Source: Eledone cirrhosa (taxonomy: Eukaryota). From it: DNA of 64,000 nucleotides. Below the pieces are notes generated by a model that was given only the letters and a program-made list of their open reading frames with translations, made no database searches and had not been told where the DNA came from. Numbering within the stretch: the first letter of the stretch is position 1; every line of letters starts with the position of its first letter. The stretch spans positions 17,608,001-17,672,000 of the forward strand of contig OZ024749.1 of NCBI GenBank assembly GCA_964016885.1, given 5' to 3'. Positions 2,169 to 2,875 of the stretch are shown here, in pieces. Made by a program: the position numbers and the translations under genes.

Positions 2169-2481
2169 AATATGGTTTTATAAATATAGTTTCCATTTGT
2201 TAATATATTGTATATATATATATATATATATATATATATATATAGTAATAATAATAAATTTGAAGACTAAAATCCAAAGAGGGCTCGATGAGGATGAATA
2301 GCAGCGATTCTTTGCTTAAACTTTAATCTGTTATTTTAATAAATATATATATATATATGTAGGTGAGTTTTATTGTAGTACAATAAAGCAATGCAGATAT
2401 CGGATAAGAAGCACTCTACAGTTTGTAGGACTGGAGTATACATAATATATAAGATCAAAAGATGGTTAAATGAGTTCCATG

Positions 2482-2552
2482 TATTTTATTATGCGCATTT
2501 CAAAAACAAATATCATCATGCAATAACATTTGTGTTTTCATCAGATAAAATA
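2482..2552 (-). ncRNA. Type-I hammerhead ribozyme with intact core
   Basis: Reverse complement: TATTTTAT-CTGATGA-long stem II-GAAA-TGCGCA (palindromic stem III)-TA-ATAAAATA, with a perfect 8-bp stem I. Confidence 0.85.
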
Positions 2553-2622
2553 GGAAAACATGATATGTTGATTTAAAACTGCACTATCCACAAGTGTTTT
2601 TAACCTTCATATCATGTCTTCC

Positions 2623-2693
2623 TATTTTATCTAATGAAAACACAAATGTTATTGCATGATGATATTTGTTTTTGAAATGCGCATAATAAAATA
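2623..2693 (+). ncRNA. Hammerhead copy with G5A core mutation (predicted inactive)
   Basis: Same fold, but the core reads CTAATGA at 2631-2637. Confidence 0.7.
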
Positions 2694-2730
2694 CATGGAA
2701 CTCATTTAACCATCTTTTGATCTTATATAT

Positions 2731-2875
2731 TATATATATATATATATATATATATATATATATATATATATATATATATATATATATATATATATATATA
2801 TAGAGAGAGAGAGAGAGAGAGAGATACAGTGTGTACGTATGAGAGAGAGAAATAGACGTGTGTGTGTGTGTGTGT
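2731..2875. repeat. Compound microsatellite (TA)n(GA)n..(GT)n
   Basis: Read directly. Other long (TA)n tracts at ~2212-2244, 6038-6082, 25523-25573 and 53562-53600. Confidence 0.98.

Follow-up and report, generated by a model that had tools for sequence, protein, structure and literature searches.

A hammerhead-bearing palindrome in (TA)n as a probable stump insertion of a Hydra-type Penelope-like element

Results and discussion

Architecture of the palindrome

The palindrome that we analysed, and the hammerhead motif in each of its arms, are genuine features of the window (the whole stretch of DNA under study, 64,000 nucleotides). From its sequence the palindrome reads as a 375-bp insertion (2359-2733) in (TA)n, composed of two 5′-truncated, head-to-head copies of the 3′ pseudo-LTR (pLTR) of an L062-type element. 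A stump insertion of a Hydra-type Penelope-like element (PLE) is very likely the best explanation as a whole, and we hold with still greater confidence that the element is correctly identified and that the G5A change in one arm is incidental. That two cDNAs were primed on one uncleaved RNA is a mechanism towards which we lean with clearly less assurance.

The inverted repeat (2437-2579/2596-2738) has arms of 143 nt with 95% complementarity, in agreement with the near-perfect palindrome of about 290 bp beside (TA)n in the original prediction. Its predicted fold (-195.5 kcal/mol, z = -32.5) was equalled in stability by none of 100 shuffles. The unit had been placed at 2442..2733, which covers the palindrome but falls short of the true unit, 2359-2733: a PLE tail of about 83 bp, present on the minus arm only (2359-2441, minus strand; unit positions 3620-3702 of L062:3397-7098), had been overlooked, and (TA)n lies on both sides, at 2344..2358 on the left and, followed by (AG)n, at 2734..2802 on the right. 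The tail-bearing minus arm runs from 2567 to 2359 (unit positions 3491-3702, 96.7% identical to L062) and the tail-less plus arm from 2563 to 2733 (3445-3619, 93.2% identical). They overlap at a 5-6-bp microhomology, (G)ATATG/CATAT(C), at 2562/3-2567, and 2568-2607 is native single-copy sequence rather than a spacer. Two private substitutions separate the arms, one in each (2633 in the plus arm, 2557 in the minus arm). The plus arm, which carries G5A, begins at the sharp 5′ start of the L062 family, a putative transcription start; the arm with the intact hammerhead is without it.

Parent element

The L062 copy consists of a pLTR (3091-3396), an ORF for reverse transcriptase (RT) and a GIY-YIG-type endonuclease (EN) in three pieces (3412-5873), a 3′ UTR, a second pLTR (6793-7098) and (TA)n; its natural unit, L062:3397-7098, is 3.7 kb long. 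The ORF has one frameshift and one stop, the latter private to the L062 copy in three of three public runs, and no fully open copy of the family was found among the copies retrieved. Other coding copies have the same pLTR. The protein shows YRDD (RT), DKT, CxCX5C, CxxC-E and CxH and is without GxKF/Y; DKT, CxCX5C, CxxC/CxH and the lack of GxKF/Y are the Hydra-clade diagnostics in section 11 of PMC8557442. At the site of the RWK motif we find RLRWT in L062 and RLRWR in the neighbouring family. Pfam gave no match on the three ORF pieces, while 273 homologues, mostly of about 700 aa, were obtained at E ≤ 0.001 among the 8000 candidates scored. On its motifs the parent of the palindrome appears to be an RT plus GIY-YIG PLE of the Hydra-clade kind, this likeness being one of motifs plus a by-eye alignment to the supplement rows of named Hydra sequences. 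The palindrome had been described as a stand-alone, non-autonomous, retrozyme-like unit mobilised by a PLE. Its making by a PLE is upheld; it is neither stand-alone nor retrozyme-like, being the 3′ pLTR of an RT-EN element with inverted arms and a fold-back apparently rebuilt at insertion.

Hammerhead motifs and the G5A change

A type-I hammerhead descriptor gave four matches on both strands of the 64 kb, two in the palindrome arms and two in a neighbouring element. The minus-strand motif (2482-2552; CTGATGA, C3 at 2544, predicted cut after A2490) satisfies the core CUGANGA...GAAA...NUH, and the plus-strand motif (2623-2693; CTAATGA, predicted cut after A2685) carries G5A at A2633, which is hammerhead position 5 and opposes C2542 in the palindrome. 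The strand-specific cores were therefore found as predicted, along with the proposed architecture of an 8-bp stem I, a long stem II (a region of 36 nt), a palindromic TGCGCA stem III and an AUA site. A covariance-model search had also been proposed; here the Rfam models over 1-8000 returned no hammerhead family at E ≤ 5 and only weak miRNA-model matches. Covariation in the stems, the absence of which was to count against the motifs, is present: in 24 motifs of several families from the fetched loci 98.4% of cells are paired, against 35-56% in slid controls, and 9 of 22 pairs have changed on both sides, figures that serve as support and not as a probability or p-value since the motifs are related and were picked with a pairing descriptor. 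Between families stem III shows a G-C/A-U swap that keeps its self-complementarity. The core columns are nearly invariant in 92 arms, N7 being the commonest core variant, and the common variants are wobble-compatible or lie at N7 and the loop. Six common subfamily variants in the stems (L062 unit positions 3507-3547) are A/G opposite U, which could reflect selection for pairing or retrotransposed A-to-I editing.

The 8-nt self-duplex of stem III is predicted at -10.5 kcal/mol and the cofolded dimer pairs via stem III, as is expected of the dimer-type PLE motifs described in PMC4209133. The predicted ensemble of single-arm pLTR RNA leaves stem I unformed (pair probability about 0.03); metazoan PLE hammerheads alone cleave poorly according to the same source. 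Judged by sequence, the hammerheads in both arms are credible as PLE-type predicted ribozymes. Hammerhead-like motifs with unrelated stems were also seen at L159 561-606 (minus), L180 1557-1636 (minus), L098 1027-1071 (plus) and L170 757-816 (plus), and probably belong to other PLE families.

Copy counts were taken as exact 22-mer occurrences in the 3.0-Gb genome. The intact core occurs 17,537 times and G5A 45 times, so one intact and one dead arm is not a trait of the family as had been supposed. The control substitutions G8A and stem-II C>T occur 101 and 154 times, both counts being partly inflated by CpG subfamilies. Position 2633 is G in nearly all contig depth of four out of four public runs, G5A being private to the window copy. 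As G5A is rarer than the controls, it is likely post-insertion decay, and its presence in the plus arm is likely a later, neutral chance point mutation. It may be noted that G5A serves as an inactivating control in PMC4027429.

Locus context and effect on RNA

Whichever strand is transcribed, read-through RNA has its antisense arm first, and its hairpin is predicted at -216 or -209 kcal/mol as against about -10 for the ribozyme fold. The supposed competition between ribozyme and hairpin in one transcript is therefore predicted to be one-sided, the antisense arm being made first and the hairpin far stronger. By these folds the long duplex would hide both ribozymes, and editing of A2633, which had been expected to restore G5, would leave the motif buried in the hairpin.

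The (TA)n of the insertion corresponds to a (TA)n about 330 bp upstream of the zinc-finger ATG in paralogous cassettes, where it also lies upstream of an acceptor-like site. Next to it, 2820..3201 (minus) is a host segment paralogous to the upstream region of C2H2 zinc-finger ORFs (40749-41103, 21021-21307 and 12214-12533), with its own ORF absent downstream: the cassette lacks its downstream part at this site, and about 8.4 kb on lies the next zinc-finger remnant, which has an upstream segment of its own. The intact arm had been assigned the position of a cassette 5′ UTR; the matching (TA)n site agrees with this, but with the acceptor-like site and ORF missing the label of 5′ UTR is unsupported. 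Nothing in the sequence shows a regulatory role of the palindrome for the zinc-finger genes, and the single locus looks like ordinary decay.

Copies of the family in the genome

Our sample comprised every one of the 66 loci to which the first 100 of the 23,576 3′-anchor matches belong, ordered by position in the first 27 Mb of contig C1; one partial arm seen twice was dropped, two L187 pairs are probably one duplicated event, and arm starts were taken from BLAST ends. Among the 113 arms obtained, 57 end at 3609-3621 (tail-less), 51 at 3701-3702 (tailed) and 5 read on into the unit. Two fixed 3′ ends (3619 and 3702) thus account for 108 of the 113, and 102 of these 108 abut (TA)4+. Together with the 164 genome occurrences of the 22-mer across the window junction, these flanks bear out the earlier expectation that the palindrome is multi-copy and that its copies sit in (TA)n. 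The 66 loci hold head-to-head pairs or single arms, and tandem arrays of monomers are absent from them. Of the head-to-head pairs, 42 in number, 23 span 520 bp or less, and a third of the sampled loci are pLTR-only fold-backs. On extrapolation from the 27 Mb (66 loci per 100 anchors), we arrive at some 15,000 insertions, with about 5,000 short fold-backs.

A tailed end is combined with a tail-less one in 38 of the 42 pairs (p = 6e-8), and the remaining 4 break this rule. Divergence is 1.7% within pairs and 7.1% between them, and none of 1000 permutations gave a within-pair value as low (31 pairs); in some pairs (L166, L187, L205 and L112) the arms diverge by 5-12%. Arms of like length tend to be paired, whether short or long (21/5/0/12, p = 2e-6). 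The junctions vary between copies, often with untemplated inserts, in many cases between two full ends. In 25 of 30 copies with the window junction it is the trimmed arm that bears the tail, in 4 it is the other arm, and 1 copy has none; the 30 represent 18 haplotypes, of which 8, including all 6 recurring ones, also occur in long arms. With variable junctions, and the window junction on at least 7 haplotypes common to long copies, the sequences indicate that the fold-back is rebuilt at each insertion rather than transposed as a whole unit. Post-insertion gene conversion is conceivable as the source of arm identity, but it would account neither for the variety of junctions nor for the tail rule, and private changes remain.

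The 5′ start and the ribozyme cut

Starts are concentrated at 3444-3445, where 30 of the 113 arms begin, as compared with 0.19 per position nearby downstream. This start lies 124 nt upstream of the predicted ribozyme cut. Genome-wide, 5,457 arms have a non-native base directly before 3445, and joints and loose ends in public-run contigs, including those under two other organism labels, converge on the same base (window 2563). At the cut itself (3569) only 1 of the 113 arms starts, and 3 do so at 3569-3574 where 1.2 are expected; no start hotspot at the cut was found in these arms or in the cut-site junction pattern. The latter has 65 genome-wide matches, and 12 of the 25 inspected are small deletions in intact motifs. 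Also, 22 of the 65 (e.g. G000:C1 145033562) have a beginning that resembles a 3-bp deletion at the predicted cut, and 11 of 12 inspected are such, which is possibly only slippage in an ATA repeat.

Taking DNA ends alone, 3445 is probably the RNA 5′ end, with transcription starting in the upstream pLTR, a reading that draws on the promoter inside the Penelope pLTR (PMC2377424); the same ends suggest that the RNA template was uncut at the ribozyme site. An extra G stands before position 3445 in 41 of the first 100 listed, where 23% are expected; this is suggestive of a copied cap but confounded, as many of these Gs could be templated by the partner arm. Among 6 mixed short-long pairs the short arm starts at 3445 in none.

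Insertion mechanism

Two fixed 3′ ends, one tail per pair and variants shared within pairs fit two cDNAs primed on one uncleaved RNA. The RNA would begin at 3445 in the upstream pLTR, and the endonuclease would nick both (TA)n strands. Priming by the two DNA ends would then take place on the same pLTR copy, at 3619 for one end and at 3702 for the other, with the first cDNA displaced by the second; when this happens in the 5′ pLTR, both cDNAs would extend past the uncut ribozyme site to the end of the RNA, reaching 175 and 258 nt. Finally the cDNA 3′ ends would join at an inverted microhomology, in this copy between the terminal CATAT(C) and the internal (G)ATATG at 3491, with trimming of the flap. 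Since the two cDNAs are identical in sequence, annealing is possible only at inverted microhomologies. The fold-back product is most likely a dead end. As reported for a PLE in vitro, both strands are nicked and extended, RT has two internal start sites by which the tail is defined, and the RNA used is unprocessed (PMC11167929); in that study (Frangieh et al.) neither RT start was seen to favour a strand. A second family in the window likewise has two fixed 3′ ends but a diffuse 5′ start, as measured against a single diverged reference.

More tentatively, the L062 family may be an archive of thousands of insertions, each with two priming events on a single uncleaved, capped RNA, one per tail boundary, and with run-off from the transcription start giving about 5,000 hammerhead mini-palindromes in which both ribozymes are always buried in dsRNA. 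If this is true, the origin of inverted pLTRs is settled, the hammerhead marks RNA that fails to transpose, and the genome holds a large dispersed source of dsRNA for ADAR or Dicer.

The alternative that survives best, although we consider it unlikely, is that short pLTR-only RNAs (3445 to about 3702) are made from an internal promoter of the stumps and mobilised in trans, so that stumps beget stumps with the fold-back rebuilt each time. It accounts for the excess of pLTR words over upstream words in the genome (17,537 and 23,576 versus 4,439), for the presence of at least 200 nt of coding region in only 16 of the 66 sampled loci, and for the pairing of short arms with short arms; Penelope has such an internal promoter (PMC2377424) and non-autonomous PLE derivatives are on record (bioRxiv 2026.07.22.740005, PMC8557442). 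Yet internal priming in the 5′ pLTR of a full-length RNA predicts the same excess, the common stump haplotypes are all present in long copies too, and the sampled loci are free of tandem monomer arrays. Trans-mobilised short RNAs may nevertheless add to the excess of stumps.

Still less probable is a second arm made by self-priming, as proposed in PMC3846280, in which the cDNA folds back and copies itself or antisense RNA primes itself. The identical variants of both arms and the length correlation would follow from it, the tail-less end at a TA-like stretch could anneal to the target, and junction palindromes were earlier read in this way (PMC3846280). Self-priming, however, needs a tailed arm that reaches at least as far 5′ as its partner, and the opposite is found in the window, in 25 of 30 same-junction copies and in 5 of 5 mixed short-long pairs, and many junctions have untemplated inserts between two full ends. 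The data therefore favour two cDNAs.

We give very little credence to a stand-alone fold-back that moves as one piece and has one arm inactive by design, serving as an editing-dependent switch in a zinc-finger 5′ UTR. The exact junction does recur 164 times, the site corresponds to a position upstream of zinc-finger ORFs in paralogues, and A2633 faces C, a mismatch favoured by ADAR. But G5A is rarer than the control changes, the junction occurs on many haplotypes and in mirror configurations, the hairpin is predicted to outweigh the ribozyme fold about twenty-fold, and the acceptor-like site and ORF of the cassette are missing. Near-perfect palindromes beside microsatellites are hard to assemble, but an artefact of read fold-back is scarcely credible here, given that the arms differ by private substitutions and in their 3′ ends and that joints converge on 2563 in contigs of independent public runs, with those under the two other labels as loose ends.

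Comparison with known systems

The closest likeness is with the Hydra clade, which includes Hydra-1_Obim (Craig et al. 2021, PMC8557442): shared features are the C-terminal EN, DKT, the CxCX5C linker, CxxC/CxH and the lack of GxKF/Y, and also the pLTR hammerhead, the (TA)n target, the inverted 5′-truncated copy and the tail at one end, and the RT motifs of L062 align by eye with the Hydra rows of the supplement. The hammerhead listed for Hydra-1_oBim, an octopus element, has other stems, which makes it a different family. As compared with the clade described in that paper, the L062 unit is 3.7 kb instead of under 3 kb, its tail about 83 bp instead of 30-40, and its motif RWT instead of RWK; its family has at least 17,500 cores, and a third of its sampled loci are pLTR-only fold-backs. 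The inverted-pLTR insertions of Penelope described from Adineta vaga and from Drosophila virilis (PMC3846280, PMC2377424) resemble the palindrome in the head-to-head inverted pLTR, an optional tail at one end, the overlap or palindrome at the junction and the pLTR promoter; in the palindrome, by contrast, both halves are pLTR-only, and in its family the copy number permits statistics and two cDNAs are favoured over self-priming. PAc (Poseidon), of another clade (Frangieh et al. 2024, PMC11167929), is alike in the two RT starts that define the tail, in the nicking and extension of both strands and in the uncut RNA, and its hammerhead is protein-assisted; in vitro no pairing of start with strand was observed for it, whereas in the L062 family each site is used once in 38 of 42 insertions.

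Animal non-LTR retrozymes (PMC7229834, bioRxiv 2026.07.22.740005) are similarly short, non-coding and PLE-related with a type-I hammerhead, but they consist of direct tandem repeats from which monomers and circles are processed (PMC7229834), whereas the palindrome is inverted, with ends that appear to be set by RT starts rather than by the ribozyme cut; an autonomous parent, L062, also exists. We rejected a non-LTR retrozyme on finding no tandem monomers in the 66 sampled loci, ends away from the cut (1 of 113 arms at 3569) and a coding parent that shares the end. A MITE or TIR DNA transposon was rejected because the palindrome has unequal ends, variable junctions and an RT parent. Palindromes of this sort would be misfiled as MITEs or retrozymes. 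Countable rules that separate two cDNAs from self-priming are two fixed 3′ ends used once each, a sharp 5′ start upstream of an uncut ribozyme, and a shared template; with them the family is a useful testbed for the origin of PLE inverted pseudo-LTRs and the role of the hammerhead, which are open questions in PMC8557442, PMC3846280 and PMC11167929. Inverted 5′-truncated copies with a one-sided tail were already known from PLEs (PMC8557442). The L062 family, its copy number, sharp start and one-tail rule were not found in print in a literature search that fell short of most subscription papers, Repbase and bioRxiv supplements; a recent octopus repeat annotation treats Penelope-like expansion in general terms only (PMC13282606).

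Other elements in the window

The second, full-length Hydra-type family occupies window 1-2206 (minus) and L061 5196-10000. It has an inverted arm, 5′ pLTR hammerheads at 2103-2168 (plus) and 1519-1584 (minus), a 3′ pLTR hammerhead at L061 5327-5392, and a broken RT-EN ORF whose RT is 58-62% identical to that of L062; its two fixed 3′ ends are about 99 nt apart, and its 3′ UTR contains nested copies of other elements. A remnant of a third repeated element, 2245-2345, lies between two (TA)n tracts; it is present at many loci, often as small fold-backs, and one copy has a hammerhead-like core, at L057 2244-2319. A further broken PLE, of a different type with a DKG motif, lies at 45848-49297 (plus), where Pfam matched GIY-YIG on 48515-49294 and gave no match on 47331-48146. 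C2H2 zinc-finger cassettes are found at 11204-11938, 15526-16122, about 20400-20750 and 37339-40443 (minus), and at L061 2075-4006; the cluster has one open frame of 1034 aa, the others being short or frameshifted. Matching ORFs about 28-29 kb apart in 24514-33659 and 52446-62361, including LTR-retroelement-like frames, suggest a segmental duplication. Finally, 7953-8582 is another inverted repeat of about 630 bp (87%), and 3590-3866 holds a 37-bp tandem array of about six copies.
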